The notes: generated by a model not told the origin, from the letters alone. A stretch of 62,630 bases of DNA from a bacterium (GCA_044869275.1 JBIOXB010000184.1:1-62630); one strand, 5' to 3'; positions 1 to 52,925 are shown, numbered from the stretch's first letter. Numbers and translations: made by a program.

Positions 1-336
1 AGGTTTTCACTACATGGCATTTCGCACCAAAAATGGTGATAGCTCTATTATCTCCGTACGAAACCTAGGCAAAAAAAAATTGAAGTGTCGAACTCGGGCT
101 AAATGTTGATGAGGTGGGGATGAAGAAGATTATGAGCGTGGCGCCGAAAACGAAGAAATAGAACGCGGATTTCGCGGATCGGGCGGATGGGCGCGGATTT
201 CGCATTTCAATGATTGACAAACCGAAATAACCTGAGTCGCCGTCCGGGCGCTGATGATGTCCGGACGGTGGTTGAAAAAGGTACTTGATAAGCACGATTA
301 GTATCGCTATTTTTGCCTAAAAGGACGGAGCTTGTC

Positions 337-543
337 ATGTCAAGAAATATCCCGACTTTAGAAGAGCGTGTCACGATTCTTGAAAAGGATCTGCTGCAGC
401 TTAAATCCCGGCTATCTGGAAAGGGAAAACAAGCTTGGTGGCAGGAAATTTCAGGTGTATTTGAAAATGACCCGGCTTTTGATGAAATCTCGGTTTTGGG
501 GCAGGCTATTCGTGAGCAGGAACGAGCCGACGTGAAATCATGA
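337..543 (+). CDS. Putative antitoxin of a VapBC-type pair
   Basis: Small ORF with GGAG RBS; its stop overlaps the ATG of the PIN gene (ATGA 540-543); W..ISGVFENDPAFDE motif typical of such partners. Confidence 0.65.
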   Translation: MSRNIPTLEERVTILEKDLLQLKSRLSGKGKQAWWQEISGVFENDPAFDEISVLGQAIREQERADVKS

Positions 544-974
544 GGTATTTTATTCTCGACACTGATCACTTGAGCATTTTGCAACGGCGATCCGAGCCTG
601 CCTTCGGCCATCTTTCCCTCAGACTATCTCAGCATTCCCCCGACCTGATCTTCACTACCATCATCAGTTTTCAGGAACAATTTCAAGGTTGGAGGGCTTT
701 TATCAACAAAGCCGCTACCGTCACAGCGTTGATAACAGCCTATGCAAAATTGGAACAACTCATTCAATCCTTCAGCCTCTCCCAAATCCTTCCTTTCGAT
801 CAAAAAGCCGCCGGGCTTGCCGAGCAACTCAAGCAGCAAAAGATACGCATCGGCACGCTGGATTTACGCATTGCCGGCATTGCTCTATCTCAAAATGCGA
901 CGCTGTTGACGAGCAACCTTCGCGATTTTGGTAAAGTGCCCAATCTGCGCATGGCAGATTGGACGGTTGCGTAA
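540..974 (+). CDS. vapC: PIN-domain toxin (VapC family)
   Basis: ILDTDHLS, DLRIAGIAL and LLTSNLRDF PIN motifs. Confidence 0.9.
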   Translation: MRYFILDTDHLSILQRRSEPAFGHLSLRLSQHSPDLIFTTIISFQEQFQGWRAFINKAATVTALITAYAKLEQLIQSFSLSQILPFDQKAAGLAEQLKQQKIRIGTLDLRIAGIALSQNATLLTSNLRDFGKVPNLRMADWTVA

Positions 975-1035
975 TAGCTCGGTTCGTCAAGGGAAGTAAT
1001 TTTTACAGCGAGATATTTTTAGGAGCAATGGGGCA

Positions 1036-4000
1036 ATGGCCTTTCTCGATACTCTCAAACAAAAATTTTCCGAAACCTGGCTCAAGCTGTGCGTCAATCT
1101 GCACCAGCGCCTGCCCGAAAACAAACCGGATCATCTTTATTGGCTGTTGGGCGCGACTGCCTTCGGCGAAGTCGTTAACGCGCCCAACTACACCGCCGCG
1201 GTTTTGGCGCTTGGCAAAGTGCTCGGCGATTTGGGTATTGAAGCGATTAGCAACGTGCTGGAAGAATTCCGCCAACGAAAGAGCGAGGCCGAGCGCATGC
1301 GCCTGCTGCAGCAAGCTGCAACAAATTCCGCTGCAGTTCGCCAAGTGATCGACGATTTGCTGGAAAAAATGGATGCCTTAACGCTGTCACAGCAGGCTTT
1401 TCATCAAAATTACCCCTCCCCCAAAGAACAACTATGGTTTACCGAGACCCTGCAGACGGCTATCAAGCAAGCGGGAAGCCGCTTGTCGGTTGTGGCGAAC
1501 ATCCGGGCTGGTCATGAAAGCGTTACGCTTGTAGGCGAAGGTGACGCACTCAGCAAAAGTGTCAAGCTCGAAAATGTTCAGGCGGCTGGCAACATCGTTG
1601 TCAATTTTGTTACGCCCGCGGCAAAGCATGATTCCTTGCTGGCCACCGCTGAGAAAAACTATCTCGATTTCGTTCAGCGCGAGCATGGTCGCATTCGCCT
1701 CTTCGGCTTTCTTTCCCACGCTAATATTGATGTGCGCCTGTTGGATGTGTTCGTTTCGCTACGCTTTTCGGATCATGGGCGCGAGATGGATTTGAAACGC
1801 TTGCCCGAGGTCGAAGAACGTGAGTCGCGCGATTTCACGCCGCCGCAAGTTTTGCAGCGCGCGATGCAAAAGAAAAAATCTCTGCTCTTGCTCGGCGGGC
1901 CCGGCTCCGGCAAAACCACGCTGCTCAAATACTTTGCGGTCTGTTGCCTCGACGCCACCAGCCGCGAGCGCATTTGTCTGCAACAGCCGTTGATTCCGAT
2001 TTTTGTGCCGTTGCGCCAAATCGACCCTTCCAGGCCTTTCACCGAGGCGCTCTCGATCTGGGTCAAAACTCACAATCAAAGTATTTCTGCTAAAAACTTT
2101 GCCGGCTGGTTGCATCAACCCGGCGCGTTGGTGTTGCTGGATGGCCTCGACGAAGTCAGCGATTTGAGAACGCGCCGCCAGATTTGCGAGTGGATCGATA
2201 AAGCCGCGTCCGCCTATGGTGAATCCACTTTCGTGGTCACCTGCCGCTTTACCGGCTATCGTGAGGCCGAGGGCGTGGCCCTGCAAACGCCGCACACGCG
2301 CGCCGACGTGCTCGATCTCAATGCCACGCAGCAGAACACGTTTTTGCAGCAATGGTTTCATGCCGCCGGGCTGGAAAGGCTGGAAGCGCAGCAAGCCGAA
2401 GATCCGCTGAGAGTACAGGAAATTCAAAGTGAAGCCAAAGCAGATGCCGGGCAGGTGGTGGAATTTTTGGCCAAAGAAGAAAACCGCGCGTTGGCCGACA
2501 TGGCCAGCATCCCCGTGTTGCTGCAAATCATGGCCATCATTTGGAAAGAGCAGGGTAGCCTCTCCGGCGAGCGCGTCGAGCTGTACAGCCGCTGCATCGA
2601 CTACTTGCTCGATCACCGCGACCGCAACAAAAAGATCGAGCCGCTGTTGAGCGCGGCCAAAGCGCGTCTGGTGCTGCGGCCGCTGGCTTTGTGGATGCAA
2701 AACGAAGGCCGGAAAGACGAAGCGCCGGCCGCTGAGATCGAAAAACAAATTGCGGGCAAATTGCAGGAAGTGCGGCCCGGAACTGAGCCTGGCGAGTTTC
2801 TCGAAAACATTCGCGACCGCGCCGGCGTGCTGGTCGGTGCGGGCGCGGAGACCTATACTTTCCAGCACAAATCGTTTCGCGAATTTCTCGCGGCCATTGA
2901 AATTGCCAACCAAAATGAGGCCGGGATTTTGGTGAAAAATTTCGGCGACGATTGGTGGCGCGAAAGCATTTTGTTCAGCGCCGGCCTCACCAGCCCCGAA
3001 ATTTTTCCCGCGTTTTTGGAGTATTTTCTCAAGCACGAAAAGAACGACGGCCCCACCTCGCCTCTGCTTTTGCAAATGCTGCACGAAGCTGCGGTAAAGC
3101 CGCTGGCGCCATTTGAAAAAGTGCTGCGCGACAAACGCTTGAGCTGGCAGAAACGCTACAATGCGTTGCAATGCGTGCGGCTATTGAGACGGCCCGGTGG
3201 ACCGCCTCTGCCCGAGGCGGTGAAAGAATTGGTCAAATTCGTGCACGCTGACAAAGAACCACGCTTGCGCCAACTGGCGGAAATGATTCTGATCGAATGG
3301 TCGGAAAGGCCCCCGGCAGTGATCGGCAAAACGCCGGATCGCTTCTTCAATCCCACCGAAGAAAACGCTGAATACCTTCTCACTCGCAGCGGTGAATACG
3401 CATTTTCCTTCACGAAAAAGAAAGTCGCCGTGCCGGATTTGTATTTTGCCAAATTCCCGGTTACTATCAAACGCTATCGCATGTTCTTGGAATCGTTGCC
3501 CAAAAAGCTGCGCGAGGATTATCGTATTCGGGTTGATGACAAACGCTTTCTCGGTGACGATCAGCCAGTCATGGGCATTACCTGGTACAGCGCCATGGCC
3601 TATTGCGAATGGCTTACTGCACAGCAAAAAGCAAATGGCAAAGGGCAAAAAGAAAGTTTGAGTTTTAGGTTGCCAACGGAGATCGAATGGGAGTGGGCGG
3701 CGACGGGGGACAAACGAGAATATCCTTGGGGCAATGAGAAGCCGGATGAAACGCGTGCGAATTTTGGGAAGAAAATCGATCACACCACGCCGGTGGGTTC
3801 TTATCCGGCGGGCGCAACGCCGGAAGGTTTGATGGACATGGCCGGCAATGTCTGGGAATGGTGCTTGAATGGACACGACGAGCCAGATTTTGTTCTGGAT
3901 AAGAATCCTGAATTATTGGGGGATTGGCGAAAGATCAAATCGGGGAACTTGCGTGCCTTGCGTGGCGGAGCCTATTACACTGAAGCAAGTGCGCTTCGCG

Positions 4001-4080
4001 GTTCGCAGCGTTACGGGTACGGCCCTGTCGACTGGGTCGACTACATCGGCTTCCGCGTAGTGGCGCGCGTCGAGTCTTGA
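1036..4080 (+). CDS. NACHT/STAND NTPase with C-terminal FGE-sulfatase (CLec-fold) domain; DGR target protein
   Basis: Walker [10 protein letters not shown], Walker [20 protein letters not shown]-terminal [41 protein letters not shown] at 1021. Confidence 0.92.
3991..4080 (+). repeat. DGR variable repeat (VR) with IMH at the 3' end of the target gene
   Basis: Ungapped match to 4575-4664; all 15 mismatches in the first 87 nt lie opposite TR adenines. Confidence 0.96.
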
Positions 4081-4193
4081 AAATTTGTTAATCTGATACT
4101 TGATAATCTGAAAAGCTTTTGCCTCGAAATTTTTTTGAAAATTGTACTGCACTGGCGCTCGCAGCGTCCGGGCAGTGAACGAGGAGGCTGATC

Positions 4194-4538
4194 ATGGCCG
4201 AAGAGCTCAAAGTCATTCAGAAAAGCTATGATTTCTGCAAATGGCTCATGGGGCACACGGGCAAGTTTCCCAAGAGCCATCGATTTTCCATTGCGGTGCG
4301 CTTGGAAAACGTTTTCCTGCAATTTCTCGAAAACATGGTGGTTGCCAACCACCGCCATGCCAAGCTGCCGCTGTTGCAGGCCGCAGATGAAGCATTGATC
4401 AAAGTGCGCCTGCTCATTCGCTTGAGCCACGAACAGCAATTTATCAACACGAATTCGTACGAATTTGCTGCTCAAAGCTTGGATGAAATCGGCAGAATGC
4501 TGGGCGGCTGGATAAAGCAACAAAGCGGGCAGAAGTAA
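4194..4538 (+). CDS. avd: DGR accessory variability determinant (Avd, four-helix bundle)
   Basis: 114 aa with KFPKSHRFSI and EIGRMLGGW motifs; lies between VR and TR; GAGGAGG RBS. Confidence 0.92.
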   Translation: MAEELKVIQKSYDFCKWLMGHTGKFPKSHRFSIAVRLENVFLQFLENMVVANHRHAKLPLLQAADEALIKVRLLIRLSHEQQFINTNSYEFAAQSLDEIGRMLGGWIKQQSGQK

Positions 4539-4574
4539 GCGGACTTCACTAATTTAAGGGGTGGAGCCGAAAGC

Positions 4575-4664
4575 GCGCTTCGCGGTTCGCAGCGTAACAG
4601 GAACAACCCTGACAACAGGAACAACAACAACGGCTTCCGCGTAGTGGCGCGCGTCGAATCAAGT
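4575..4664 (+). ncRNA. DGR template repeat (TR)
   Basis: AAC-rich non-coding copy of VR located between avd and RT. Confidence 0.95.
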
Positions 4665-4968
4665 TCCGCTGCCGGGTTCCGGCACGCCAATGCCGCCCGT
4701 TTACGGACTGGCGGATGGCGCCGGAACATGACAAAGCTCCCTCCGGTTGGGCCGCATGAAAAGTGAGCGTGCGGCACACAAACAAAGTCCGGTCGTATCG
4801 GCTTCTCCACCGGTATGGCCGGTACGGGCTTGGCGGCGCTGGTAGGGCCGGTTTTTCGGTTTCGAACGCGCCGCCGCGTCCAAGTAGTCCTACCCCCTTG
4901 TGGGGCATTATGATTCACTCATGCTTGCGTGCAAGAAAAGCGGCCCACGAGGGCCGGGGCTACTTTTC

Positions 4969-6051
4969 ATGAAGACTCACAAAAACCTCTACGCTCAAAT
5001 CTGTTCGTTCGAGAATTTGATTTTGTCTGCCCGTAAAGCCGCGGCGAGCAAGCGTTTTCGCCCCCACGTGCTCGCGTTCTTTCATGATTTCGAGCGCAAC
5101 GCACTGCAAGTGCTGCACGAGCTGCGCACCTTCAGTTATCAACCCGGCGAATATCGCGCCTTCTTCATCCACGAACCGAAAAAGCGTTTGATTAGTGCCG
5201 CGCCGTTCTGCGACCGCATCGTGCACCACATGCTCATCAACGTCATCGGCCCCTTGTTCGAGCGACGTTTCATTTTTGACAGCTATGCTAATCGCGCAGG
5301 TAAAGGCACGCATGCCGCCATCCGCCGCCTGCAGCAGTTCATGCGGCAGGCGAATTACGTTTTGAAGCTGGATTTGCGCCAATATTTTCCCAGCATCGAT
5401 CATGAAATTTTGAAGGGAGAGGTCCGGCGAGTCATCGCCGATCGTGAAACTTTATGGCTGATCGATAAAATCATCGACGGCAGTAATCCGCAAATGGAAA
5501 CCAATTGGTATTTTCCCGGCGATGATCTATTCACCCCGTTTCAAAGACGGCGTGGCCTGCCCATCGGCAATTTGACCAGCCAATTCTTTGCAAATGTTTA
5601 CTTGAACCCCTTTGATCATTTTGCCAAAGAAAACCTGCGCTGCCGTTTCTATGCCCGCTATGTTGACGATGCCGTTATTCTGGCCGATTCACCGTCTTAT
5701 TTGCAATCGCTCTTACCGCCCCTACAAGCGTATCTAAATGAGTTTCGCTTGCGGTTGTATCGGGAGAAGTGCCAAATTCGGCCCGTGCAACGAGGGCAAA
5801 GATTCTTAGGTCAAATTGTCTTTCCCGCGCACCGACTGTTGGCGCGTGAAAATGTGCGGCGTTGTGCGCGGCGCATGCGGCGCCTGATACGGCTTTATCA
5901 ACTGAAGAAGACCTCTTTGCTCGAAATCCGGCAATCCCTGATGAGCTGGCTGGGGCACGCGCGGCAGGCCAATACCTGGGCGCTGCGTTGTGCATTGATG
6001 CCTCGGTTGGCAACATTACACGGCACAGAAGTGACCGGTCAGTTGAGCTGA
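4969..6051 (+). CDS. DGR reverse transcriptase
   Basis: [31 protein letters not shown] (DGR-type SQ motif), YARYVDD; start ATG 4969 chosen (MKTHKNLY). Confidence 0.95.
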
Positions 6052-6062
6052 TTGGAAATAAC

Positions 6063-6923
6063 ATGTCCATCATCGACATTCACGTCCACATCCAGCCCTG
6101 GGAGCAGCTCAAGCCCGGCGTGCGGGAGATCATGACCGCCGGCCGAAAAGACCTGGCGGCAATTGAAAAATTCATGCAATCGCCCCAAGCCTTTTTGGAG
6201 TTTTTGGATGCCAACGGCGTCGAGGCCGTGGGGTTGATCAATTATCCCAGCCCAGATTTGATGGGTTTCACCGCGGCGACGAATGACTTCGTGGCGAACT
6301 ATTGCCAGATGAACCCGCAGCGCCTGATCGCTTTTGGCGGTGTGCATCCGCGTTTTTGTGATGACGTCGATGGCGAAATGACGCGCTTGCTGCAGCTCGG
6401 CATTCGCTGTTTGAAAGTGCATCCGCCGCATCAGAATATCGCGGCCAATGCCTATCGCTACGGCCACACGGCACAGCAAGATCTCTACCGCCGCGCGGAA
6501 GAAGAAAACATGCTGATCATGTTTCATGGCGGCACCAGCATTTTTCCCGGCGCGAGAAATGTGTTTGCGGACACCATGCCCATTGATGACGTCGCAGTGG
6601 ATTTTCCCAATCTCAAAATCGTCATCGCGCACGCGGGCCGGCCTTTACATGTGGACACAACTTTCTTTCTCTTGCGACGGCATAAAAACGTGCATATCGA
6701 TATTTCCGGCATCCCGCCCAAAAAACTACTGGAGTATTTGCCACGTCTCGAAGAAATCGCAGACAAAACCCTGTGGGGCACGGACTGGCCCAGCCCGGGG
6801 GTGATGGACATGCGTAAGAACATTGACGCTTTTCTCGCGCTGCCGCTGCCACAAAAAACACAAGAAGCCATCCTCTCTGAGAATGCCTTCCGGCTGCTGC
6901 GGCAATGCGGCGCCGTGCTTTGA
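6063..6923 (+). CDS. Amidohydrolase family 2 protein
   Basis: IIDIHVH, KVHPPHQ, IVIAHAG, LWGTDWP. Confidence 0.88.
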   Translation: MSIIDIHVHIQPWEQLKPGVREIMTAGRKDLAAIEKFMQSPQAFLEFLDANGVEAVGLINYPSPDLMGFTAATNDFVANYCQMNPQRLIAFGGVHPRFCDDVDGEMTRLLQLGIRCLKVHPPHQNIAANAYRYGHTAQQDLYRRAEEENMLIMFHGGTSIFPGARNVFADTMPIDDVAVDFPNLKIVIAHAGRPLHVDTTFFLLRRHKNVHIDISGIPPKKLLEYLPRLEEIADKTLWGTDWPSPGVMDMRKNIDAFLALPLPQKTQEAILSENAFRLLRQCGAVL

Positions 6924-6969
6924 TCAAGAAGGACACGGATTGAATTGAAAATCTTTCGTATTTTCAGAC

Positions 6970-6997
6970 TTGACTTTCACCAGGAATATTTTATCAT
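6970..6997 (+). promoter_or_regulatory. Candidate sigma70 promoter
   Basis: TTGACT-N16-TATCAT upstream of the CHRD gene. Confidence 0.45.
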
Positions 6998-7232
6998 TTC
7001 CCCGCCTAATTATTGCAGACGCCGTCTTCTCTGAGCGTACAACTCCGCCGGGCGCGTTCGGCCGCTGACATTTGTATCGGCTTTTCACGAAGGGTAGGTC
7101 AGTAATGGGTGTTGTATCCGGAGCAACCGGAGCCGTCCGCTATTCCGTTGTTCTTGCCACTGCACGCCTTGCCTGCTCACCCACATCTTCCAATCTTAAT
7201 TCACCTTTCCAGTTTCACTACATGCAAGGAGA

Positions 7233-10200
7233 ATGCTCATGCGATTGCTACGAGGCCTTTTCGTACTCGGCCTGATCTGGCTTTGCGCCGCCGCGCCGGC
7301 CTTTGGTCAAAACGATCATCTACTCATCTCCGAATTCGCGGTGACGCCGACACCTGGTGAATTCATTGAGATTTTCAATCCGACTTCGGCCACTATCGAC
7401 CTGTCGCACTATTATCTCACCGACGATATTTTCAACAACGACAACGATTACGTAAATGTCGGCTACGGCGCCGACTCCCTGTCTGTCATTGCTTCGGATT
7501 TTCTGGTGAAATTTCCCGACGGTGCAAGCATTGCGCCGGGTGGAGTGATCACCGTGGCCTTGAGCGGCTCGGGCTTTCAAACGACGTATGCTCGCGCGGC
7601 GGATTACGAAATCCTCGACGCCGATCCCAATGTCACGAATATGGCTGGCATCGAGGTCGGCAGCGGCGCGGGCTTGACCAACGGCAGCGAAACCATCGTG
7701 CTCTTCACCTGGGATGGCACCAGCGATCTCGTACAAGACGTCGATTACGTGGTGTGGGGCAACAAAGGCACGGCCGTGGACAAATCCGGTTTGGCGATTG
7801 ACGGCCCGGACGCGGATAGCGACGCGAGCACTTATCAAAACGATACGCCGGTTGCAAATCAATCCGTCGTCAATGCGGATAACGACGCCGACCTTGACCC
7901 GCATGACAACGGTGAAAGTGCCGCGCGTGCCACTCTTGAAGCGGGTGAAACGCTCACGGGCGGCAACGGCATCACCGGAAACGATGAAACCAGTGAGAAC
8001 CTCAGCTTGGCCGGGGGCAGTTGGGTGAGCAGCAACGCGCCTACGCCTGGCAGCGTACCAGAGGCGCTGGCCGGCGGGCAGGTCACGTATTTTATGGCAA
8101 CCTTGAACGGCGCACAAGAAAATCCCAGTGTGAGCACGCCGGCGACCGGCGGCGGTTATTTCATTCTAAATGAGGCGCACACCGAGCTGCAGTATTTTGT
8201 GAGTGTGAGCGGCCTGAGTGGACCGATTTCGGCCTCGCATTTTCACAACGCCGCGACCGGCGTAAATGGCCCGGTGGTGCGCAACATCACGTTCACCGCC
8301 GGTATCTCGAGCGGTGTCTGGTCAACGAGTGATGCAACGCAGCCGCTGACGCCCCAACTTCTCGCGGCGCTCCTGGCCGGCAATCTTTATGTGAACGTTC
8401 ACACCGCGGCCAATCCTGGCGGCGAGATTCGCGGCCAGGTTCTGGTTGGCAGCGAGAAGAAATTCGTTGCCACCCTGAACGGTGACCAAGAAAATCCGCC
8501 GGTGGTAACGGCTGGCAATGGCTCCGGCAAATTCACGTTGAGCGCGGACGGTTCGAGTTTGAGTTATGAGGTTACCATAAATGGCCTCAGCGGTGCGATC
8601 TCCGCCTCACATTTTCACAACGCCGTCACCGGCGTAAACGGACCGGTGGTGCGCAACATCAGTTTCGTTGGCAATACCTCCACCGGCACGTGGCCGAGCA
8701 CTGATGCAACTCAGCCGTTCACACCAGCTTTCGTGGCAGAATTGCTGGCCGGCAAGCTTTATGTGAATGTTCATACCGCCGCAAATCCTGGCGGCGAGAT
8801 TCGCGGCCAGGTGCTGGAAGGCTCGGAGGTGGTTTTTCTCGCTGTGCTCAATGGCGCACAAGAGAATCCGCCGGTGGCCACGAATGCCAGCGGCGGCGGG
8901 CGCTTTGTGCTCAACGCCGAACAAACCGAGTTGTCTTATTTCATCAGAGTGGGAAATCTTTCCGGCCCGATTTCCGCCTCGCATTTTCACAATGCCGCGA
9001 CCGGAGTGAACGGCCCGGTGGTGCGCAACATTACGTTTACTGACGGTGTCGCCTCTGGCGTGTGGTCGAGCACAGATGCCACACAACCATTGACGCCCGC
9101 ATTGCTCGCGCAATTGTTGGCCGGCAATATTTATGCGAATGTTCACACCGCGGCCAATCCCGGCGGGGAGATTCGCGGCCAGCTCACGCGCGGCGCGGCG
9201 GTCAAATTCGCGGCGCAGATCGAAGGCAGCCAGGAAGTGCCGCCCACCACTGGCAACGGCGCGGGTTTTGGCCTGTTCTCACTCAACCCGACGGGCGATT
9301 CTTTAAGCTACAACATCGGCGTCACCGGCTTGAGCGGGCCGATGTCGGCGGCGCACTTTCACAACGCCGCCGCCGGCGTGAATGGTCCAGTGGTGCGCGC
9401 GCTCTCCTTTACCGGTGATTTTTCCAACGGCGTGTGGACGAGCAACGATGGGCAGGCGCTCACGCCCGCGCTCGCGGTGGAATTGCTGGCGCGCAATATT
9501 TACGTCAACGTGCATACGGCCTTGAATCCCGGTGGCGAGGTCCGCGGCCAGGTTTTGCCCGGCGCGAAAGTGGTGACGCCAATAGGCTTGGCGCGGCAGC
9601 TGGCGGACAATACCCGCAACGTCACCATCGAAGGCATCGTCACCACCATTGATTTCGGATTGTCGAACGCGACGAATTCCGAATTCTATTTGCAGGACGC
9701 GAGCGGCGGTTTGCGCATGTTCGTGGGCAGCGGCAAAGCGGTGCTGGCGCAGGGCCAGCGTGTGCGCGTGAAAGAAAGCACGATTGCGACCAATGCCGGA
9801 CGCAAAAACATCGAAACCGTGCCGGATTCCATCGTCGCGTTCGATACGCCCGGCATGCCGCCGCCGCAAGTGGTGACGGCGGATTTCTACGTGAACAATC
9901 GCGCCGCACTCGAGGGCGAGCTGATTCGCATCAATAACGCGAATCTCGCCGCGGCCTTTCCAGCGGACAATAGCAACGCCACGATCACCATCAACGACGG
10001 CAGCGGCGATCTCGCGATGTTCATCGACCGCGATACGGACATCGACGGCTCGCCCACGCCTGCCAATCCCGTGAACGTCATTGGCGTGGCGACATCATTC
10101 AACGCAGTGCCGCAAATTCAGCCCTCCAATCGTTCCGACTTCCGCGCGCCGGTGGTGTTCTTTGCCACGCTCAACGGCGGCCAGGAGAATCCGCCGGTCA

Positions 10201-12554
10201 CGACGAACGCGACCGGAGGCGGCATGTTCGTGTTGAATGAAGACCAAACCGAGCTGAGTTATAACGTCAGTGTGATTGGCTTGAGCGGAGCGATTACGGC
10301 CTCGCATTTTCACAACGCCGCCACCGGCGTCAACGGCCCGGTGGTGCGCAACATCGCGTTCACCGACGGGGTGTCGAGCGGTGTTTGGTCAACGACTGAT
10401 GCAACACAGCCGCTGACGCCCGCGCTTCTGACCGCGCTCTTGGCCGGCAATCTTTATGTGAATGTGCACACCGCGGCCAATCCCGGCGGCGAGATTCGCG
10501 GCCAGGTGTTAGCAGGCCAGGCGACCAACTTCACGGCCACGCTTGACGGCGCGCAGGAAAACCCGCCGGTGACCACGAATGCCAATGGCGTGGGCAACTT
10601 CGCGCTGAATGCCACCGGCTCGGAATTGTCCTATGATGTCACCGTGAATGGCTTGAGCGGCGCGATCTCTGCGTCACACTTTCACAATGCCGCCACTGGC
10701 GTAAACGGGCCGGTGGTGCGTGCAATCACTTTTACCGGTAATAACTCCAGCGGCGTGTGGAAGAATACGGACACGCAAGCTCTCACCCCAGCGCTGGTGG
10801 CGGAATTATTGGCGACGAAGATTTATGTGAATGTGCACACCGCGATGAATCCCGGAGGCGAAATTCGCGGGCAATTGCGCACCGGCGCCGAGACCATCTT
10901 TCATGCCGTGCTGAATGGCCAGCAAGAAAATCCGCCGGTTACCACTGATGCCGTTGGCGGCGGCCGTTTCGTGCTCAATAGCGATCGCACCGAGCTTTCG
11001 TACAAAATCAAGGTCGCCAATCTCAGCGGGCCGATTCAAGCGGCGCATTTTCACAACGCCCCGACCGGTGTGAATGGCCCGGTGGTGCGCAACCTCACAT
11101 TCACCGACAACGTTGCCTCCGGCGTGTGGTCGGCAACGGACGCCACGCAGCCCCTGACACCCACGCTGCTGGCGGAGTTGCTGGCTGGCAATCTTTATGT
11201 GAATGTCCACACTTCCACCAATCCCGGCGGCGAGATTCGCGGGCAAGTACTGTCGGGCGTGGCCATCAACTTTGCGGCGAATTTGGATGGCAGCCAGGAA
11301 AACCCGCCGGTGACGACGAACGCCGCCGGCGTCGGCACTTATACGTTGAATGCGAGCGGACAAGAGTTGGCTTACAATGTAAGCTATGTCGGCTTGAGCA
11401 GTAACTTTAGCGCTGCGCATTTCCATAATGCGGGCCGCGGAGTAAACGGCCCGGTGGTGCGTGCGACTGATTTCATCGGCACGACTGCCACGGGCGTCTG
11501 GAAAAGCACGGACGCACAGGCACTGACCACCGATCTTGTGGTCGAGTTATTGGCCAGCCAGATTTACTTCAATATTCACAGCGCCAACTTCCCGGGAGGC
11601 GAGATTCGGGGCCAGGTGCTTCCCGGCGCGCAGGCCATTTCGCCGATCTCGATTGCACGGCAAACTGCCAATGGCACCGTGGCTACGGTGGAAGGTATTG
11701 TCACGCGCGCCGTGGGCCGTTCCGCGCAAGTGCAGGACGCCACTGCGGGCATCACCGTCTTCCAAACGAGCGGCGCTTTTCGCACGGCGATTGACAGCGG
11801 CGACGTGCGCCTCGGCGACCGATTGCGCATTACCGGCACGCTTGCGGAATTCAATTCCTTGAAAGAATTCTCGCCCATCAGCAGCTTCGAAGTCCTTTCG
11901 CGCGACAACGCGCTGCCAGCCTCGCAGCTCGTCACGCTTGCGGAGATTGCCGCCAACGGCGAGGCATATGAAAGCGAGTTGATTCGCGTCGATGGTCTGA
12001 GCATCAATCCCGGCGGCGATGCGGCGTTCGTGGCAGCCAAAACTTATATGATCACGGATGCCAGCGATCCTTCGGGGGCAGTGGCATTGCGCACTCCCGT
12101 CGCCAGCGACACAAAAATTGCGGGCGTGCCCATTCCCACCGGCGCCGCAGTGTTTGAAGGTGTGCTGGGCCAGTTTAACTCAGCGAACCCGGCCGCCGGC
12201 TATCAACTGAGTCCGGTGCTGGCAACCGACGTGATGCCTGCGACCAGTGTGGGCGAAACTGGATCGGAGCTGCCGGAACGATTCGCGCTCTTGCAGAATT
12301 ATCCGAATCCCTTCAATCCCACTACCATCATCCGCTACGACTTGCCCCAGTCCGGCCACGTAAGGCTGGTAATTTACAATCTGCTGGGAAGAGCCGTGCG
12401 CACGCTGGTGGACGCCAAGGAAGCGCCGGGCTTCAAGCAGGTGAGGTGGGACGGCGCGAATGACGCGGGCGAACGCCTCACCAGCGGCATTTACATTTAT
12501 CGGATTGAGACGAACGGTTTCACGGCAACGCGCAAGCTAACGTTGTTGAAGTAA
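7233..12554 (+). CDS. Large secreted protein: lamin-tail-like domain, 8 CHRD domains, OB-fold-like segments, C-terminal FlgD-Ig/sorting domain
   Basis: Signal peptide; eight repeats of L.G.QE.PP / HFH / N.HT..NPGGEIRGQ; C-terminal QNYPNPFNP...KLTLLK. Confidence 0.85.
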   Translation: MLMRLLRGLFVLGLIWLCAAAPAFGQNDHLLISEFAVTPTPGEFIEIFNPTSATIDLSHYYLTDDIFNNDNDYVNVGYGADSLSVIASDFLVKFPDGASIAPGGVITVALSGSGFQTTYARAADYEILDADPNVTNMAGIEVGSGAGLTNGSETIVLFTWDGTSDLVQDVDYVVWGNKGTAVDKSGLAIDGPDADSDASTYQNDTPVANQSVVNADNDADLDPHDNGESAARATLEAGETLTGGNGITGNDETSENLSLAGGSWVSSNAPTPGSVPEALAGGQVTYFMATLNGAQENPSVSTPATGGGYFILNEAHTELQYFVSVSGLSGPISASHFHNAATGVNGPVVRNITFTAGISSGVWSTSDATQPLTPQLLAALLAGNLYVNVHTAANPGGEIRGQVLVGSEKKFVATLNGDQENPPVVTAGNGSGKFTLSADGSSLSYEVTINGLSGAISASHFHNAVTGVNGPVVRNISFVGNTSTGTWPSTDATQPFTPAFVAELLAGKLYVNVHTAANPGGEIRGQVLEGSEVVFLAVLNGAQENPPVATNASGGGRFVLNAEQTELSYFIRVGNLSGPISASHFHNAATGVNGPVVRNITFTDGVASGVWSSTDATQPLTPALLAQLLAGNIYANVHTAANPGGEIRGQLTRGAAVKFAAQIEGSQEVPPTTGNGAGFGLFSLNPTGDSLSYNIGVTGLSGPMSAAHFHNAAAGVNGPVVRALSFTGDFSNGVWTSNDGQALTPALAVELLARNIYVNVHTALNPGGEVRGQVLPGAKVVTPIGLARQLADNTRNVTIEGIVTTIDFGLSNATNSEFYLQDASGGLRMFVGSGKAVLAQGQRVRVKESTIATNAGRKNIETVPDSIVAFDTPGMPPPQVVTADFYVNNRAALEGELIRINNANLAAAFPADNSNATITINDGSGDLAMFIDRDTDIDGSPTPANPVNVIGVATSFNAVPQIQPSNRSDFRAPVVFFATLNGGQENPPVTTNATGGGMFVLNEDQTELSYNVSVIGLSGAITASHFHNAATGVNGPVVRNIAFTDGVSSGVWSTTDATQPLTPALLTALLAGNLYVNVHTAANPGGEIRGQVLAGQATNFTATLDGAQENPPVTTNANGVGNFALNATGSELSYDVTVNGLSGAISASHFHNAATGVNGPVVRAITFTGNNSSGVWKNTDTQALTPALVAELLATKIYVNVHTAMNPGGEIRGQLRTGAETIFHAVLNGQQENPPVTTDAVGGGRFVLNSDRTELSYKIKVANLSGPIQAAHFHNAPTGVNGPVVRNLTFTDNVASGVWSATDATQPLTPTLLAELLAGNLYVNVHTSTNPGGEIRGQVLSGVAINFAANLDGSQENPPVTTNAAGVGTYTLNASGQELAYNVSYVGLSSNFSAAHFHNAGRGVNGPVVRATDFIGTTATGVWKSTDAQALTTDLVVELLASQIYFNIHSANFPGGEIRGQVLPGAQAISPISIARQTANGTVATVEGIVTRAVGRSAQVQDATAGITVFQTSGAFRTAIDSGDVRLGDRLRITGTLAEFNSLKEFSPISSFEVLSRDNALPASQLVTLAEIAANGEAYESELIRVDGLSINPGGDAAFVAAKTYMITDASDPSGAVALRTPVASDTKIAGVPIPTGAAVFEGVLGQFNSANPAAGYQLSPVLATDVMPATSVGETGSELPERFALLQNYPNPFNPTTIIRYDLPQSGHVRLVIYNLLGRAVRTLVDAKEAPGFKQVRWDGANDAGERLTSGIYIYRIETNGFTATRKLTLLK

Positions 12555-15588: not shown

Positions 15589-16578
15589 ATGCACATTGAC
15601 ATTCAAGCCATCAACGAAAAAATTCGACGTGAAAGCGGATTTGTTGAGAAGCTGACGAAAGAAGTGGCCAAGGTCATCGTCGGCCAAAAATACATGGTGG
15701 AACGCTTGATGATCGGCCTGCTCGGCAACGGCCATGTTTTGCTCGAAGGCGTTCCGGGATTGGCAAAGACGCTGGCGGTCAAAACGCTCTCGTCCGTGGT
15801 GCAAACCAAATTTCAACGCATTCAGTTCACGCCGGATTTGCTGCCGGCGGATTTAATTGGCACGCTGATTTACGACCAGAAGAACGGCGAATTCACCACG
15901 AAAAAAGGGCCGATCTTTGCCAACTTGATTCTGGCGGATGAAATCAACCGCTCGCCCGCGAAAGTGCAGTCGGCGCTGCTCGAAGCGATGATGGAGCGCC
16001 AGGTCACCATCGGCGAGAAGACTTTCAAGCTGGATGATCCCTTTCTGGTGCTGGCCACGCAAAACCCGATCGAGCAGGAAGGCACCTATCCGCTGCCGGA
16101 GGCGCAAGTGGATCGTTTCATGCTGAAGCTGGCGATCGGGTATCCGAACAAGGACGAAGAATTGGAAATCATGCGGCGCATGACGCGCGGGATCGTGGAG
16201 GAGCCCAAAGCCGTGGTGACACCGGCGGACATCGTGCGGGCGCGCCAGGTGGTCGGAGAGATTTATATCGACGAAAAAGTCGAACGTTACATTGTCGATC
16301 TCGTCTTTGCCACGCGCGAGCCGGAAAAATACGGGCTGCAGGAATTGGATGACTTGATCCAATACGGCGCCAGCCCGCGCGCCAGCATCTTTTTGGCGCA
16401 AGCGTCCAAGGCACACGCCTTTCTGCGCGGCCGCGGCTATGTTACGCCGGAGGACGTGCGCTCCATCGCGATGGATGTGATGCGCCATCGTATCCTGCTC
16501 ACGTATGAAGCCGAGGCCGAAGAAAAAACGCCGGAATACGTCGTCGGCCAGGTGTTGGGCCGCATCGAAGTGCCGTGA
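15589..16578 (+). CDS. moxR: MoxR family AAA+ ATPase
   Basis: EGVPGLAKT, RIQFTPDLLP, DEINR, ATQNPIEQEGTYPLPEAQ.DRF. Confidence 0.95.
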   Translation: MHIDIQAINEKIRRESGFVEKLTKEVAKVIVGQKYMVERLMIGLLGNGHVLLEGVPGLAKTLAVKTLSSVVQTKFQRIQFTPDLLPADLIGTLIYDQKNGEFTTKKGPIFANLILADEINRSPAKVQSALLEAMMERQVTIGEKTFKLDDPFLVLATQNPIEQEGTYPLPEAQVDRFMLKLAIGYPNKDEELEIMRRMTRGIVEEPKAVVTPADIVRARQVVGEIYIDEKVERYIVDLVFATREPEKYGLQELDDLIQYGASPRASIFLAQASKAHAFLRGRGYVTPEDVRSIAMDVMRHRILLTYEAEAEEKTPEYVVGQVLGRIEVP

Positions 16579-16663
16579 GCGAGTCTGAAAATCGAGGAGC
16601 GAAGATTTAAGATCGAGCCTCCAGTTTTCAGTATCCAGTATCAAGTATCAAGATTCAAGATTC

Positions 16664-17542
16664 ATGATCCCCAAAGAAATTCTTAAAAAAGTCCGGCGGC
16701 TGGAAATTCAAACCCGCGCGCTGGTCAACGACGTGTTCAGCGGTGAATATCACTCCGTGTTCAAAGGCCGGGGCATGGCTTTCGCCGAAGTGCGCGAATA
16801 TGTGATCGGCGACGATATTCGCAATATTGACTGGAACGTCACGGCACGCACCGGACATCCGTTTGTCAAGGTTTTCGACGAAGAGCGCGAGTTGACGGTC
16901 ATGTTGCTGGTGGATGCCAGCTCTTCCGGCGAGTTCGGCACGCATGAGCAAATGAAAGGCGATATTGCCGCAGAAATATGCGCGTTGCTGGCCTTTTCCG
17001 CGATCAAAAACAACGACAAAGTTGGATTGATCATTTTCACCGATCGCCTGGAAAAATTTGTGCCGCCGAAAAAAGGCCGCATGCACGTTTTGCGCGTGTT
17101 GCGCGAAGTGCTCTTTCACAAGCCCGAAGGCCGCGAGACCAATATCGCGATGGCGCTGGAATACCTCAACCGCGTGATCCGCCGCAAAGCCGTGGTCTTT
17201 CTCGTTTCCGATTTTCTTTCCGAGGGCTACGAGAAAGCCTTGCGCGTCGCCAGCAAACGGCACGACGTGGTTGCCATTCCCATCACCGATCCGCGCGAAA
17301 CGGAAATTCCCAACGTCGGTTTGGTGGAATTGGAAGACGCGGAAACCGGCGAAGTGCATTTGCTGGATACGACCAATCCCGCCAATCGCCAAGCCTTTGC
17401 CCGCGAGGCGGCCCGGCGCGGGCTGTTGCGCGAAAAGACGCTGCGCTCTTCGAAGGTCGATCCGGTCGATATTCACACGGACCAGCCGTACATCGAGCCG
17501 CTCGTGCGCTTCTTCAAGATGCGCGCCAAAAGATTTCGTTGA
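16664..17542 (+). CDS. DUF58 (VWA-like) protein
   Basis: FKGRGMAFAEVREY..GDDIRNIDWNVTAR. Confidence 0.92.
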   Translation: MIPKEILKKVRRLEIQTRALVNDVFSGEYHSVFKGRGMAFAEVREYVIGDDIRNIDWNVTARTGHPFVKVFDEERELTVMLLVDASSSGEFGTHEQMKGDIAAEICALLAFSAIKNNDKVGLIIFTDRLEKFVPPKKGRMHVLRVLREVLFHKPEGRETNIAMALEYLNRVIRRKAVVFLVSDFLSEGYEKALRVASKRHDVVAIPITDPRETEIPNVGLVELEDAETGEVHLLDTTNPANRQAFAREAARRGLLREKTLRSSKVDPVDIHTDQPYIEPLVRFFKMRAKRFR

Positions 17543-17661
17543 CGGAGGGCAGAACCCATGAGCGTGCTTGGTATTTTTCATTAAGCTCAGCCTGCGTTGA
17601 AACCAAGCGCTTTCACGCAGTCTGATTCTTACAGAACGACACTCTGAGAAAGATAGCTGTC

Positions 17662-18597
17662 ATGAGAATTATCCATTCCAAATCGCCAAGCTTTCTCTTT
17701 GCCCTTTGCCTTTTGTTTTTTGCTTTTTCCTCGTGCCAGCAGGCCAAGCCCAATTTGCCGGCCGCGCGCGTGCGCGATTTCGCCAACGTGCTTTACAATC
17801 GCGATCTCTACAAACAGGCAATTGCCGAGTACGAGCGCTATCTGCAAAACTACCCGATGGATGAGCGCGAGCAGGCCAACATCAGTTACACCATCGGCAA
17901 CATTTATTTTGACCGCCTGCGCGATTACGAGGGGGCATTGGCATATTATCTGCGCGTGAAGGAGCTTTATCCCAAAAGCGAATTGGTGGATGATGCCAGC
18001 AAGCGCGTGGTCGAATGCCTCGAAAGGTTGCAGCGCTCCGCCGACGCTCAACAAGCGCTGGAAGAGAGCACCATGCTCGATCCGGCGCAGAGAACACCCA
18101 AGCGCCCGGGCGAAGTGATTGCGAAAATCGGCGACCGGGAGATCACCACCGGCGATCTGGAATTCGAGATGAAAAACCTGCCGCCGTTCATGCAGGCGCA
18201 AGTCAAAGACCGCAGCAAGAAAATCGAATTCTTGAAGCAATATCTCGCGGCGGAACTGTTGTACAATACCGCCAAGCGCAAGGGCTTGGAAAACGATCAA
18301 GAAGTTGTTGCCGCGGCTTTTCAAGCCAAAAAGAATATCGTCGTACAAAAACTTTTGCAGGACGAAATCGGTCAAAACGTTCAAATCGATCCGGGCAATC
18401 TCGAACTATACTATCGCGCCAATTTGAACCGCTATGGCAAAGCCGATTCCGGCGGCCACGTCCCTGCGTTTGAAGAAGTGCGCTCGCAAGTGGCGCAAGA
18501 CTATTTGCGGGAAAAGCAGCAGGAGACGTATAATCAACTTGTCGAGCGCATGATGCGCGCGGAGGCGGTCGTCATTTACGAAGACAAAGTGCAGTAG
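17662..18597 (+). CDS. Putative lipoprotein with TPR region and SurA/PrsA-N-like chaperone region
   Basis: Lipobox-like FSSC; TPR-like helices; VIAKIGDREIT, LLYNTAKRKGL, FEEVRSQV. Confidence 0.7.
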   Translation: MRIIHSKSPSFLFALCLLFFAFSSCQQAKPNLPAARVRDFANVLYNRDLYKQAIAEYERYLQNYPMDEREQANISYTIGNIYFDRLRDYEGALAYYLRVKELYPKSELVDDASKRVVECLERLQRSADAQQALEESTMLDPAQRTPKRPGEVIAKIGDREITTGDLEFEMKNLPPFMQAQVKDRSKKIEFLKQYLAAELLYNTAKRKGLENDQEVVAAAFQAKKNIVVQKLLQDEIGQNVQIDPGNLELYYRANLNRYGKADSGGHVPAFEEVRSQVAQDYLREKQQETYNQLVERMMRAEAVVIYEDKVQ

Positions 18598-18745
18598 CAT
18601 GTCGTATCAGCTATTTATAGGGAGAGGGTCAAGCTCGTCCTGCATAAGACGGGAGGCATGCACAAACTCCGGACATTCTCTGGATTCCTCGCACCTTCCG
18701 CGAGACGAGCATGCCAGTGCTTATGGCAGATACATTTATTGGTGC

Positions 18746-19774
18746 ATGCTTTTTGCCAATTGCTTTTTGTTCTTTGCCGTTTGCTCTTTGTTCATTGCCG
18801 TTTCCGCCCGGCCGCAATCCGGTTCTCCGGTTTCCGTGGCCTCGCGCGTCGATAAAGCCACAATCACCATCGGCGACACCGTGCGCTACACCGTGCGCTT
18901 GAGCCGCGACGAGAAAGTTCAGGTACGCTGGCCCAGCCTGGGCGCCAATCTCGGGGTGTTTGAGATTCGAGACTACGATAAAGGCGAGCCCCGCAAGGAA
19001 AACAGCCGCATGGTCGAAGAGATTGCCTATACGATCTCGACCTTCGACACCGGCCGCTTCGTGATTCCGCCGCTGGCGATCGAATATCTCGCGCCGCCGG
19101 ACACGGCGTGGCACACGCTGCACAGCGAAAGCCTCGAAATCTACGTCAAATCCATTCTGCCCAGTGAAGCCGGCGATATTCGCGGCCTCAAAGCGCCGTG
19201 GGAATTGCCGCGCGATTGGCGGCGGATCATTTTATATGTCGCGATCGGCATCGCCGTCGTTCTGTTTGCCGTGGCCGGCTATCTGTGGTGGCGAAAGCGC
19301 CAGGGCAAGAGTTTGTTGCCCCAGCGCCTCGAACCGTCGCGGCCCGCGCACGAGCTGGCTCTGGAAGAATTGCGGCAATTGCGTGCGAGCGACTTGCTGG
19401 CGCGCGGCGAGATCAAATTATTTTACAGCCTGCTCTCGGAAATTATGCGGCGCTACTTCGAGGGCCGGTATCGCCTCCCGGCTTTGGAAATGACGACCGC
19501 CGAGCTCGAGGGCGAGCTGCCCCAGGTCGAATCCAATGCGCAGGCCTGCGACCAAATGCGCGCCGTGCTGGAGATTTGCGATCTGGCGAAATTCGCCAAA
19601 TTCGTTCCGGCCATGGAAGAGGCGGAGCGTATGCTCGATCAAGCTGAAGCTTTTGTGCAGGCCACGAAACCGGCGCCGGCTCTCGCGGCCAATCAGAATG
19701 GCGAGGCGCGGAAGGCGAATGTGGAGCCGGCGGGCTCCTCGCCAAAGATTGCCGAGGAAGCCAACCATGTTTGA
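18746..19774 (+). CDS. Bat-operon membrane protein (BatD-like N-terminal domain, single TM)
   Basis: Signal peptide, TIGD, FDTGRFVIP, DIRGLK, one TM, YFEGRY...ALEMTT, DLAKFAK. Confidence 0.75.
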   Translation: MLFANCFLFFAVCSLFIAVSARPQSGSPVSVASRVDKATITIGDTVRYTVRLSRDEKVQVRWPSLGANLGVFEIRDYDKGEPRKENSRMVEEIAYTISTFDTGRFVIPPLAIEYLAPPDTAWHTLHSESLEIYVKSILPSEAGDIRGLKAPWELPRDWRRIILYVAIGIAVVLFAVAGYLWWRKRQGKSLLPQRLEPSRPAHELALEELRQLRASDLLARGEIKLFYSLLSEIMRRYFEGRYRLPALEMTTAELEGELPQVESNAQACDQMRAVLEICDLAKFAKFVPAMEEAERMLDQAEAFVQATKPAPALAANQNGEARKANVEPAGSSPKIAEEANHV

Positions 19775-19788
19775 TTTGATAAGAAGCA

Positions 19789-20787
19789 ATGCATATGCCC
19801 AATTTCGCTGATCCACAGTTCTTGTTCCTGCTCCTGCTGTTGCCGTTGCTGGCGTGGTGGTATGTGCGCACGTATGCCAAACGCGCCGCGACGATTCGCT
19901 ATTCGAATCTCGACTTGCTGAAGAACTTGCCCACGCCGTCGAATTATTGGTCGCGCCATCTGCAATTTGGCTTGCGCTTGCTGGCGCTGGCATTGGTGAT
20001 CGTGGCGCTGGCGCGGCCGCAAAGCGGACACACGGAGGAGGAAGTCACCACCGAAGGCATCGACATCGTGCTGGCGCTGGATATTTCCAGCAGCATGCTG
20101 GCGGAAGATTTCAAGCCCAAGAACCGCATGGAAGCGGCGAAACAGGTGGCCGAGCAGTTTATCGGCGGGCGCAAAAGCGATCGCATCGGCATGGTGGTGT
20201 TTGCCGCGCGCAGCTTTACGCAATGCCCGCTCACGCTCGATTACGGCATTCTCATCAACTTCCTGCGCAAAGTGGAAATCGGCATGATCGACGATGGCAC
20301 GGCGATCGGGCTCGGCTTGGCGACGGCGGTGGATCGCCTGCGCAGCAGCAAAGCCAAGAGCAAAGTCATTATTCTGCTCACGGATGGCGTGAACAATGCC
20401 GGTGAAATCGATCCCATCACGGCCGCGCGCGTCGCCGCAGCATTCAACGTGCGCATTTATACGATCGGCGTGGGCACGCGCGGCGAGGCGATGTATCCCG
20501 TGCAGGATCCGATTTTCGGCAAGCGCTACGTGCGCATGCCGGTGGAAATCGACGAAGCCATGCTCACGCGCATCGCGGAGATGACCCGCGGCCAGTATTT
20601 CCGCGCGACCGGCCGCCAGAGCTTGGAGAAAGTCTTTGCTGAAATTGACCAGCTCGAAAAAACCAAAATTGAAATCAAGCAATTCACCCGCTATCGCGAG
20701 CTGTTCGTCTATTGGCTGGCGACGGCCCTGGGTTTGATTTTTGTCGAAGTCGTTCTGACGAACACCAAATTTCGCAAGATTCCATGA
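19789..20787 (+). CDS. batA: BatA VWA-domain protein
   Basis: ALARPQ, MIDAS DISSSM, GTAIG, LLTDG. Confidence 0.88.
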   Translation: MHMPNFADPQFLFLLLLLPLLAWWYVRTYAKRAATIRYSNLDLLKNLPTPSNYWSRHLQFGLRLLALALVIVALARPQSGHTEEEVTTEGIDIVLALDISSSMLAEDFKPKNRMEAAKQVAEQFIGGRKSDRIGMVVFAARSFTQCPLTLDYGILINFLRKVEIGMIDDGTAIGLGLATAVDRLRSSKAKSKVIILLTDGVNNAGEIDPITAARVAAAFNVRIYTIGVGTRGEAMYPVQDPIFGKRYVRMPVEIDEAMLTRIAEMTRGQYFRATGRQSLEKVFAEIDQLEKTKIEIKQFTRYRELFVYWLATALGLIFVEVVLTNTKFRKIP

Positions 20788-21845: not shown

Positions 21846-21846
21846 C

Positions 21847-22746: not shown

Positions 22747-22758
22747 GCGTTAGGTAGT

Positions 22759-22889
22759 CAGTTACAAATGCACGCTCTGTAAAAAAGAAAAAATTTTCTC
22801 CCACGGAAATGGAACTGCCACGAAAAAAGCTTTTCATTTCCGTGGGAGTTCCGCTTTCGTGGGTGATAAATTTTTTTTGGTTCCGGCTT
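22759..22889. repeat. ~130-bp dispersed palindromic repeat, copy 1
   Basis: Similar to 48498-48629; perfect 14-bp inverted repeat ctcccacggaaatg/catttccgtgggag. Confidence 0.85.
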
Positions 22890-22910
22890 GTCCGGCTCAT
22901 GTATTTGAAG

Positions 22911-52924: not shown

Positions 52925-52925
52925 A

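Follow-up and report, generated by a model that had tools for sequence, protein, structure and literature searches.

The locus examined here raises the question of whether a bacterium re-randomises, by means of a retroelement, the sensor of an immune-like receptor inside its own cytoplasm, or whether the elements that suggest this have come together for some other reason. It occupies positions 1036-6051 of a stretch of 62,630 nucleotides (GCA_044869275.1 JBIOXB010000184.1:1-62630), hereafter the window, which is contig C184 of a 6.67-Mb assembly in 255 contigs (94.4% complete) from a bacterium whose relatives belong to KSB1/Zhuqueibacterota, an uncultured phylum of the FCB group. A preliminary description made from the sequence alone had placed there a complete diversity-generating retroelement (DGR) with its target, and every part lies where it had been claimed: the target gene with its variable repeat (VR), the accessory gene avd, the template repeat (TR) and the gene for the reverse transcriptase (RT) form one intact, co-oriented cassette within 5 kb, beginning ~1 kb from the contig end. 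We read the locus as an intact chromosomal DGR that probably re-randomises the lectin tip of a cytoplasmic NLR-like NACHT protein, with an anti-invader response as the most likely role of that protein. The features on which this reading rests are as follows.

1036-4080, plus strand: DGR target gene, 1014 aa, NLR-like (open reading frame (ORF) list, Pfam, AlphaFold2 (AF2) model, PDB profile matches, Foldseek)
1036-1485, plus strand: N-terminal all-alpha module (residues 1-150), putative adaptor or effector of an uncharacterised family
1882-2364, plus strand: NACHT NTPase core (residues 283-443; Pfam, motifs, fold matches)
3418-4062, plus strand: FGE-sulfatase/C-type-lectin-fold (CLec) domain (residues 795-1009; PF03781, PDB profile matches)
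3987-4076, plus strand: VR (repeat finder, TR/VR alignment)
4194-4538, plus strand: avd, four-helix-bundle accessory protein, 114 aa (NCBIfam NF033474, Pfam bAvd PF22296)
4571-4660, plus strand: TR, AAC-rich (repeat finder, TR/VR alignment)
4661-4883, plus strand: structured non-coding RNA, the DGR 'spacer' between TR and RT (covariation, fold z-score)
4969-6051, plus strand: DGR reverse transcriptase, 360 aa from ATG 4969 (RVT_1; open frame from GTG 4900)

The repeat pair and its retroelement

The repeat finder pairs 90 nt at 3987-4076 with 4571-4660 as a direct repeat of 83% identity, and 14 of the 15 mismatches fall where the downstream copy has an adenine, as it does at 25 of its 90 positions (hypergeometric P = 6.4e-9 for at least 14 of 15). 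Because the mismatches concentrate in this way, the alignment marks the downstream copy as the TR and the upstream copy, at the 3' end of the target gene, as the VR. From TR to VR, adenine became G at seven sites, T at seven and C at none. Thirteen of these changes crowd into the 35 nt from 4012 to 4046 and affect the first or second base of codons for residues 993-1004, where they alter the TR-encoded NRNNPDNRNNNN; this zone is the diversified core, and the invariant 3' segment of the VR (4047-4076) resembles an initiation of mutagenic homing (IMH) sequence. There are eight AAC codons in the TR, and an adenine substitution in any TR codon yields sense codons only, a stop being unreachable; the 11 diversified codons allow ~10^11 proteins and all adenine-bearing codons together ~10^13. 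A longer TR was rejected. MAFFT introduced a 12-nt gap that pairs GGTGGAGCC, 5' of the TR, with GGCGGAGCC of the target gene, but GGTGGAGCCGAAA is a conserved TR flank outside the repeat, because it is also found 5' of the TR in the closest related cassette (L001), the VR flank being unmatched there.

The two retroelement proteins are those expected of a DGR. Avd scores 109.4 bits against NCBIfam NF033474 (DivGenRetAVD), where the equivalog cut-off is 80, and 75.6 bits against Pfam bAvd PF22296 (E 5.1e-21). The RT matches RVT_1 at 79.9 bits in Pfam and carries YVDD at residue 231 and IGNLTSQ (IGxxxSQ) at residue 199 of its 360 aa, in keeping with the combination of YxDD and [I/V/L]GxxxSQ that defines DGR-type RTs. 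Its frame is open over 4900-6051, from GTG 4900, and the true start is most likely ATG 4969, because alignments of relatives begin at ORF residues 17-24 and the gene of a relative starts MKTHKNLY. The catalytic motifs are intact and every ORF of the cassette is open. The genome holds one avd and one DGR-type RT; a second RT match, on contig C154, is 26.5% identical. Identity of the RT is 73-81% with the RTs of related cassettes, 45-48% with RTs that neighbour NACHT-CLec targets in L010 (Bryobacteraceae), L012 (a proteobacterium) and L017 (Chloroflexi), and 40.5% with the best RT among 50,697 phage records.

A search of the genome with the TR and the VR (blastn-short) yielded no further VR target beyond the cognate pair. 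Two paralogues of the target have VR-like C-termini and hydrophobic N-termini: a 1011-aa NACHT-CLec protein, 46% identical (C48:64008-67043), and a 510-aa CLec protein (C99:27870-29402). Their ends differ from this TR at 33 positions (16 at adenines) and 27 positions (14 at adenines), so we rejected them as its products; the assembly contains no cognate TR for either, and on sequence they look like orphan or former DGR targets.

The same arrangement recurs in relatives. A word-index search gave 574 homologues of the target at E<=0.001 among 8000 candidates scored, the named ones mainly from candidate division KSB1 and also from Calditrichaceae and Aminicenantes, and most of them cover only ~80% of the target (residues 206-1014). 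We examined 75 loci of species-representative genomes; the NACHT part is included in 17, of which five (L001, L010, L012, L016 and L017) are accompanied within 6 kb by an RT and a TR/VR pair with adenine bias. Over the same distance the Chlorobiaceae and Calditrichia loci L002-L008 have neither, and locus L009, from a KSB1 genome, has a weak RT match (53 bits) without a TR/VR pair. The closest cassette, L001, belongs to Candidatus Coneutiohabitans thermophilus of the Zhuqueibacterota (former KSB1); it has the gene order of the window, an RT 81% and an Avd 67% identical, a target 77% identical from residue 207 on, 14 of 14 TR/VR differences at adenines, and downstream an amidohydrolase 83% identical to that of the window. 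Its N-terminal module is DUF4062-like, unlike that of the window. In L085 (genome G016) the N-terminal module of the window stands on a NACHT core only 32% identical, with Avd and RT 69% and 77% identical and the amidohydrolase again downstream, and L086 (genome G004) combines a DUF4062-like head with a NACHT region of 28% identity, its Avd and RT being 70% and 73% identical. Five metagenome contigs found through the spacer motif (L090-L094) encode Avd proteins 62-68% identical and targets that match that of the window in the C-terminal part only; their RTs are 74-82% identical in L091, L092 and L094, represented by two short fragments in L093, and without a match in L090. TR/VR pairs with 12-15 mismatches, all at adenines, are present in L001, L085, L086, L090, L091 and L092, the order target-avd-TR-RT being complete in the first three and followed in L090-L092 as far as the contigs reach.

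In relatives, then, the avd-TR-RT core occupies one constant place in the chromosome and is conserved together with the lectin tip, whereas N-terminal module and NACHT core are exchanged. We take the cassette to be chromosomal and vertically kept rather than phage-borne, because the downstream amidohydrolase is shared with L001 at the identity given above, housekeeping genes fill other parts of the window, and the best phage RT is so distant. The last difference between the repeats, GAATC in the TR and GAGTC in the VR (VR G at 4074), lies 3 nt from the end of the homology and is synonymous in the window. It recurs in L001, L085, L086, L090 and L092, and in L091 the VR also differs at the next base of the site. 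Because a random adenine substitution would not recur across relatives, we read it as a fixed marker that distinguishes the VR end (IMH) from the TR end.

The ~230-nt spacer between TR and RT is strongly conserved. RNAalifold predicts 60 pairs from ten related sequences, 11 of them with compensatory changes, and 95.6% of the cells of the alignment pair; none of 500 column shuffles reached the observed values, and sliding the partners gave 1-6 covarying pairs and 37-44% pairing, a control in which the structure is favoured by having been derived from the same ten sequences. The spacer of the window itself folds with z = -3.35. Related spacers lie at 7575-7803 in L001, 7694-7922 in L085 and 7692-7923 in L086, and also occur in L084 and L090-L094. 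Across positions 1-7500 of the window Rfam returned no family match apart from one chance match to mir-399 (E 0.048). The DGR of the Bordetella phage BPP-1 reportedly has a structured spacer 3' of its TR that primes cDNA synthesis (Handa et al. 2018), and by analogy the spacer RNA of the window is most likely its counterpart. Its covariation implies a retroelement lineage under selection.

The receptor and its exchangeable head

The preliminary description had called the target a NACHT/STAND NTPase with a C-terminal FGE/CLec domain ending in the VR, and both assignments are borne out. The NACHT model PF05729 scores 38.0 bits (cut-off 26.7) over residues 283-443, where Walker A reads GGPGSGKT (287-294) and Walker B reads LVLLDGLDE (365-373); G290, G292, K293, T294, D369, D372 and E373 are invariant across 70 homologues. 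An AF2 model built on the alignment of these 70 has a pLDDT of 78.8, most 10-residue blocks from residue 200 on exceeding 80, with dips to 44-73 at several places (e.g., 57 and 55 at residues 911-930, and, in the VR, 69 at 981-990). Its top Foldseek matches are NLRC4 (4kxf, E 2.4e-12), NOD2 (5irl) and NLRP3 (9gu4), at E 2.4e-12 to 1e-10 and probability 1.00 over 550-650 aligned columns, followed by EgtB, ToxD and FGE for the C-terminal domain, to which a helical/winged-helix region joins the NACHT NTPase. That domain matches FGE-sulfatase PF03781 over residues 795-1009 (124.9 bits, E 5.7e-36), and its PDB profile matches are PorK, EgtB, FGE and TvpA, the DGR variable protein of Treponema denticola (2y3c, E 2.1e-19).

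The C-terminal domain is, as judged from its residues, a lectin-fold binding scaffold and not an FGE enzyme, because cysteine is absent after residue 943 of 1014; the last 71 residues would thus not supply the catalytic cysteine pair, which in FGE/SUMF1 sits near the C-terminus. The residues encoded by TR adenines are exactly the hypervariable ones across homologues: in the 14 closest homologues the columns of the 14 TR-adenine codons have a mean entropy of 2.45 bits, compared with 0.85 elsewhere in the CLec domain, and in all 70 the two values are 2.91 and 1.34 bits; framework residues such as P997 and the GFR motif are fixed. The absence of a signal peptide, also claimed at the outset, is upheld, residues 1-150 showing no signal-peptide-like N-terminus (maximum 19-residue Kyte-Doolittle mean 1.42). 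There is no convincing membrane span in the protein, the only higher hydropathy value (1.81) lying in a helix of the NTPase region, and the target appears to be cytoplasmic.

For residues 1-270 Pfam gives no match, even at E<=10. In the AF2 model from a 35-sequence alignment, residues 1-150 form a bundle of eight to nine helices with pLDDT >90, followed by a disordered glycine-rich linker. No solved fold corresponds convincingly to this bundle: the best Foldseek match in the PDB has E 0.65, and the best result of a wide VIA-align search, Z 5.6 against helical-repeat proteins, is in the chance range for helical bundles. The ESM Atlas gave a best value of 0.81 for unnamed clusters and 0.77 for HetE-N, which we treat as leads only. 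HMMER found 48 homologues of residues 1-210 at E<=0.001 among 1.84 billion cluster representatives. Of these, 30 were scanned against Pfam, and in all 30 the module is N-terminal; it is followed by NACHT-FGE-sulfatase in 11, by NACHT/AAA only in 8 (many probably cut), by NB-ARC-WD40, a PNP_UDP_1 phosphorylase or sigma-70 region 4 (P0147) in one each, and by no other recognisable domain in 8. A domain that heads both STAND NTPases and unrelated enzymes corresponds to the effector-associated domain (EAD) of Kaur, Burroughs, Iyer and Aravind (2021, eLife, PMC8195603); here and below, what we say of this paper, its companion and Doré et al. (2024, PNAS, PMC10907252) refers to the accessible parts of their texts. 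From its contexts the module could be an adaptor, or equally the effector itself.

Fourteen of 18 other genomes in the host family (12 of 16 when the unpublished G001 and G014 are set aside) contain DGR-type RTs, several genomes having more than one, in a tally that includes ~40%-identity matches in 500-600-aa frames, probably group II intron RTs. More than one DGR per genome is rare and typical of multicellular bacteria according to Doré et al. (PMC10907252). We put forward, tentatively and with more doubt than confidence, that the Zhuqueibacterota keep one DGR lineage in a fixed slot upstream of the amidohydrolase that serves as a receptor-exchange site, with core and lectin tip 62-82% identical, the NACHT core 28-77% identical and the head either DUF4062 or all-alpha; that the all-alpha module would be an undescribed death or adaptor domain of bacterial NLRs; and that the 12 of 16 frequency would either predict an aggregate or multicellular habit in this phylum or untie DGR-diversified NLRs from multicellularity.

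Mechanism and competing explanations

If the cassette is currently active, the avd-TR-spacer-RT unit would be transcribed, and RT and Avd would copy the TR RNA into cDNA, misincorporating opposite adenines. The cDNA would then replace the VR at the 3' end of the target, the invariant 3' segment, in which the VR has G where the TR has A, giving the exchange its direction, and the 11 codons of residues 993-1004 would be re-randomised, to ~10^11 variants, at the tip of the C-type-lectin fold. On the model of STAND proteins already characterised, one could envision a ligand at the tip releasing the NACHT switch and the protein oligomerising, whereupon the all-alpha module would act, directly or by recruiting an effector; the output would most likely be an anti-phage or anti-invader response. 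Several results weigh against this reading, and we give them with the alternatives that they favour or, for those that touch the function of the head and the class as a whole, here. The N-terminal module has no second copy among the six-frame ORFs of the 94%-complete genome, all of which were searched with hmmsearch, and no effector partner was thereby identified, and CLec-STAND proteins are described, in the accessible text of Doré et al. (PMC10907252), as having had no experimental test so far.

A role other than defence is unlikely in our estimation. The NACHT-CLec protein would then serve kin or self/non-self recognition, comparable to the NLR-type heterokaryon incompatibility of fungi, or the tuning of regulation or signalling. 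Kin recognition is raised as an alternative by Doré et al. (PMC10907252). The cassette is surrounded by housekeeping genes and lies outside any defence island, and the target satisfies none of the curated models of defence proteins in PADLOC and NCBIfam, its best PADLOC match being PDC-S60 (E 8.2e-4, 15.6 bits) and its score for the antiphage model EruA of NCBIfam 33.7 bits against a cut-off of 1000. The fusion of the module to sigma-70 region 4 in P0147 also points towards regulation. Against this, the apparently cytoplasmic protein fits poorly with direct sensing of neighbouring cells, and the module is fused as well to a PNP_UDP_1 phosphorylase, a typical type of conflict-system effector. 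The layout of variable head, STAND NTPase and hypervariable sensor matches, moreover, that of antiphage STAND proteins that have been tested (PMC10907252).

It is also conceivable, and we hold it to be quite unlikely, that the cassette is intact but silent or very rarely active, the VR being frozen and the protein a NACHT-CLec receptor of fixed specificity. We compared with the region the assembled contigs of four out of five public runs. The four contig sets show no differences and no joints; the probable source run is identical over the region, X3 (a second sample, from the same study) agrees with it at every position of 3868-4162, VR included, and X2 and X4 cover only parts outside the VR. 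The contigs thus reveal no variation in the VR, as a frozen VR would predict; however, contigs drop rare variants, so identical VRs neither show nor exclude ongoing homing, and both samples come from one study. The single non-adenine mismatch between the repeats, a synonymous C to T at 3990, suggests either some drift since the last homing or a position outside the homing tract. Decay has occurred among relatives: in L084 (G011:C74, 2886-3400, minus strand) avd and TR have been deleted, so that a VR-type target end abuts the spacer, the RT ORF is still open, and the receptor of this collapsed DGR is probably frozen. The VR-like ends of the C48 and C99 paralogues, which lack a cognate TR, point the same way. 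In the window, by contrast, the ORFs are open, the catalytic motifs intact and 14 of the 15 differences at adenines, and the lineage has kept its spacer RNA structure through compensatory changes. A re-randomised receptor is the reading that we prefer.

A last possibility, that the repeats arose by chance or through a duplication by recombination and that the RT, as an enzyme of the group II intron or retron type, has nothing to do with the target, is refuted and merits next to no credence: the best NCBIfam match of the RT is indeed a group II intron RT/maturase (127.5 bits, far below its cut-off of 300) and similar RTs are annotated 'retron-type' in phage records, but the adenine-specific mismatches (P = 6e-9), the Avd score above the equivalog cut-off, the IGxxxSQ motif and the recurrence of gene order and adenine-only differences in L001, L085, L086 and, as far as the contigs reach, L090-L092 are all inconsistent with it.

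Related systems and the surroundings of the cassette

The preliminary description had allowed that architecture, host and context might be new. The architecture is already in print, and the cassette fits the descriptions of Kaur et al. and Doré et al. in every feature examined. STAND NTPase-FGS proteins with mutually displacing N-terminal EADs or effectors, often linked to a DGR RT and a four-helix protein and present as several paralogues per genome, are described in PMC8195603, where the analogy to hypermutating immune receptors is proposed; a companion paper treats STAND/EAD conflict systems (Kaur 2020, eLife, PMC7159879). The cassette shares with these proteins the variable N-terminal module displaced between relatives, the STAND and FGS domains, the DGR link and the paralogues. 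It differs in that its module matches no Pfam family at E<=10 and has no second copy on an effector in the genome. Doré et al. describe clade 5D DGRs with NACHT/nSTAND-CLec targets, many of whose N-terminal extensions are uncharacterised. Like the cassette, these DGRs (Thiohalocapsa PB-PSB1 DGR 3 and 6) have a central NACHT/nSTAND domain, a single C-terminal CLec/FGE domain with the VR, targets predicted to be cytoplasmic, adjacent Avd and RT, and a cellular rather than phage lineage. The targets there are 'commonly two', in contrast to one in the cassette, which differs further in its host, KSB1/Zhuqueibacterota, and in that no adjacent effector or adaptor gene was found in it.

The N-terminal module of the target matches none of the EAD families, as far as Pfam contains them. 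The DGRs of Bordetella BPP-1 (Mtd) and of Treponema TvpA reportedly share adenine-specific homing, a VR at the end of a CLec/FGE domain, Avd and RT, but they diversify, respectively, the receptor-binding protein of a phage and a surface lipoprotein, whereas in the window the CLec domain is the sensor end of a cytoplasmic NLR-like NTPase. Among bacterial NLR-like defence proteins, bNACHT (Kibby et al. 2023) and Avs (Gao et al. 2022), both cited by Doré et al., have reportedly been tested experimentally. They resemble the target in having an N-terminal module, a STAND NTPase and a C-terminal sensor, with a NACHT fold close to animal NLRs, and they differ in that their sensors are fixed TPR or other repeats rather than a lectin fold diversified by a retroelement.

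As for the host, we found no description of DGRs of KSB1/Zhuqueibacterota in the literature, although supplementary tables of DGR surveys may list some. The paper describing the phylum Zhuqueibacterota does not contain the words retroelement, reverse transcriptase, multicellular, filament or defense, and a Shark Bay paper mentions KSB1 and DGRs separately. What the cassette adds is modest: the host phylum, the exchange of modules at a fixed site, an uncharacterised N-terminal family, and a spacer RNA supported by covariation. It leaves the picture of what such systems are unchanged. It extends the class to an uncultured phylum of the FCB group and is thereby relevant to the view, already published, that DGRs of this type are a mark of multicellular bacteria. 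Of the bacterial analogues of a hypermutating immune receptor put forward to date, NLR-like sensors diversified by a DGR come closest, and a compact cassette with a single target and natural module-swapped relatives lends itself reasonably well to reconstitution in a heterologous host.

Positions 313-6051 hold five co-oriented genes, all on the plus strand in the ORF list. The two that precede the target are as follows.

313-543, plus strand: small ORF of 76 aa, putative VapB-like antitoxin, a role suggested by position; 4-nt overlap with the start of the PIN gene
540-974, plus strand: PIN-domain/VapC-like toxin gene, 144 aa (PIN PF01850 at E 0.0019, below cut-off; NCBIfam VapC models at 47.1 bits, below cut-off)

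The 76-aa ORF has no match in Pfam, NCBIfam or PADLOC. The preliminary description had named this apparent vapBC pair together with the target, an association that is not conserved: the corresponding slot holds an MqsA-like gene with a 97-aa partner in L001 (3154-3720), a TumE toxin with a 93-aa partner in L086 (3080-3726), a pRiA4b-ORF3-like gene in L084 and no toxin-antitoxin pair in L085. A co-oriented pair thus stands directly 5' of the target in 3 of 5 cassettes, each time of another family, and we rejected vapBC as a part of the system, relatives carrying other toxin-antitoxin families or none in this place.

The housekeeping genes elsewhere in the window encode PriA, trigger factor, ClpX, Lon and LeuRS. 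A scan for sigma-70 promoters and terminators gave counts not above those of shuffled sequence, the scan being one that does not cover promoters of the FCB group. The gene at 7233-12554 encodes a protein of 1773 aa in which a lamin-tail domain, eight CHRD domains and DUF5689 are combined with a C-terminal domain of FlgD_ig type that resembles a sorting signal of the type IX secretion system (T9SS); a lamin-tail-domain protein is also encoded 3' of the cassette in L001 and 5' of it in L085. Ten kb from the DGR, at 15589-25603, lies a Bat-type set comprising an AAA_3 MoxR gene, two BatA-vWA genes, a TPR gene, BatD and a TPR-SH3 gene, a set also named 'aerotolerance operon'. We considered these MoxR-vWA genes (15.6-25.6 kb) as a ternary conflict system and rejected the idea on account of their Bat-type composition and of the absence of a CLec domain from all of them. 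Finally, in a single ORF at 52851-53768, flanked by acyl-CoA carboxylase genes, a nucleotidyltransferase domain (Polbeta/NTP_transf_2) is fused to a HEPN domain; the two are commonly met as a toxin-antitoxin-like pair.

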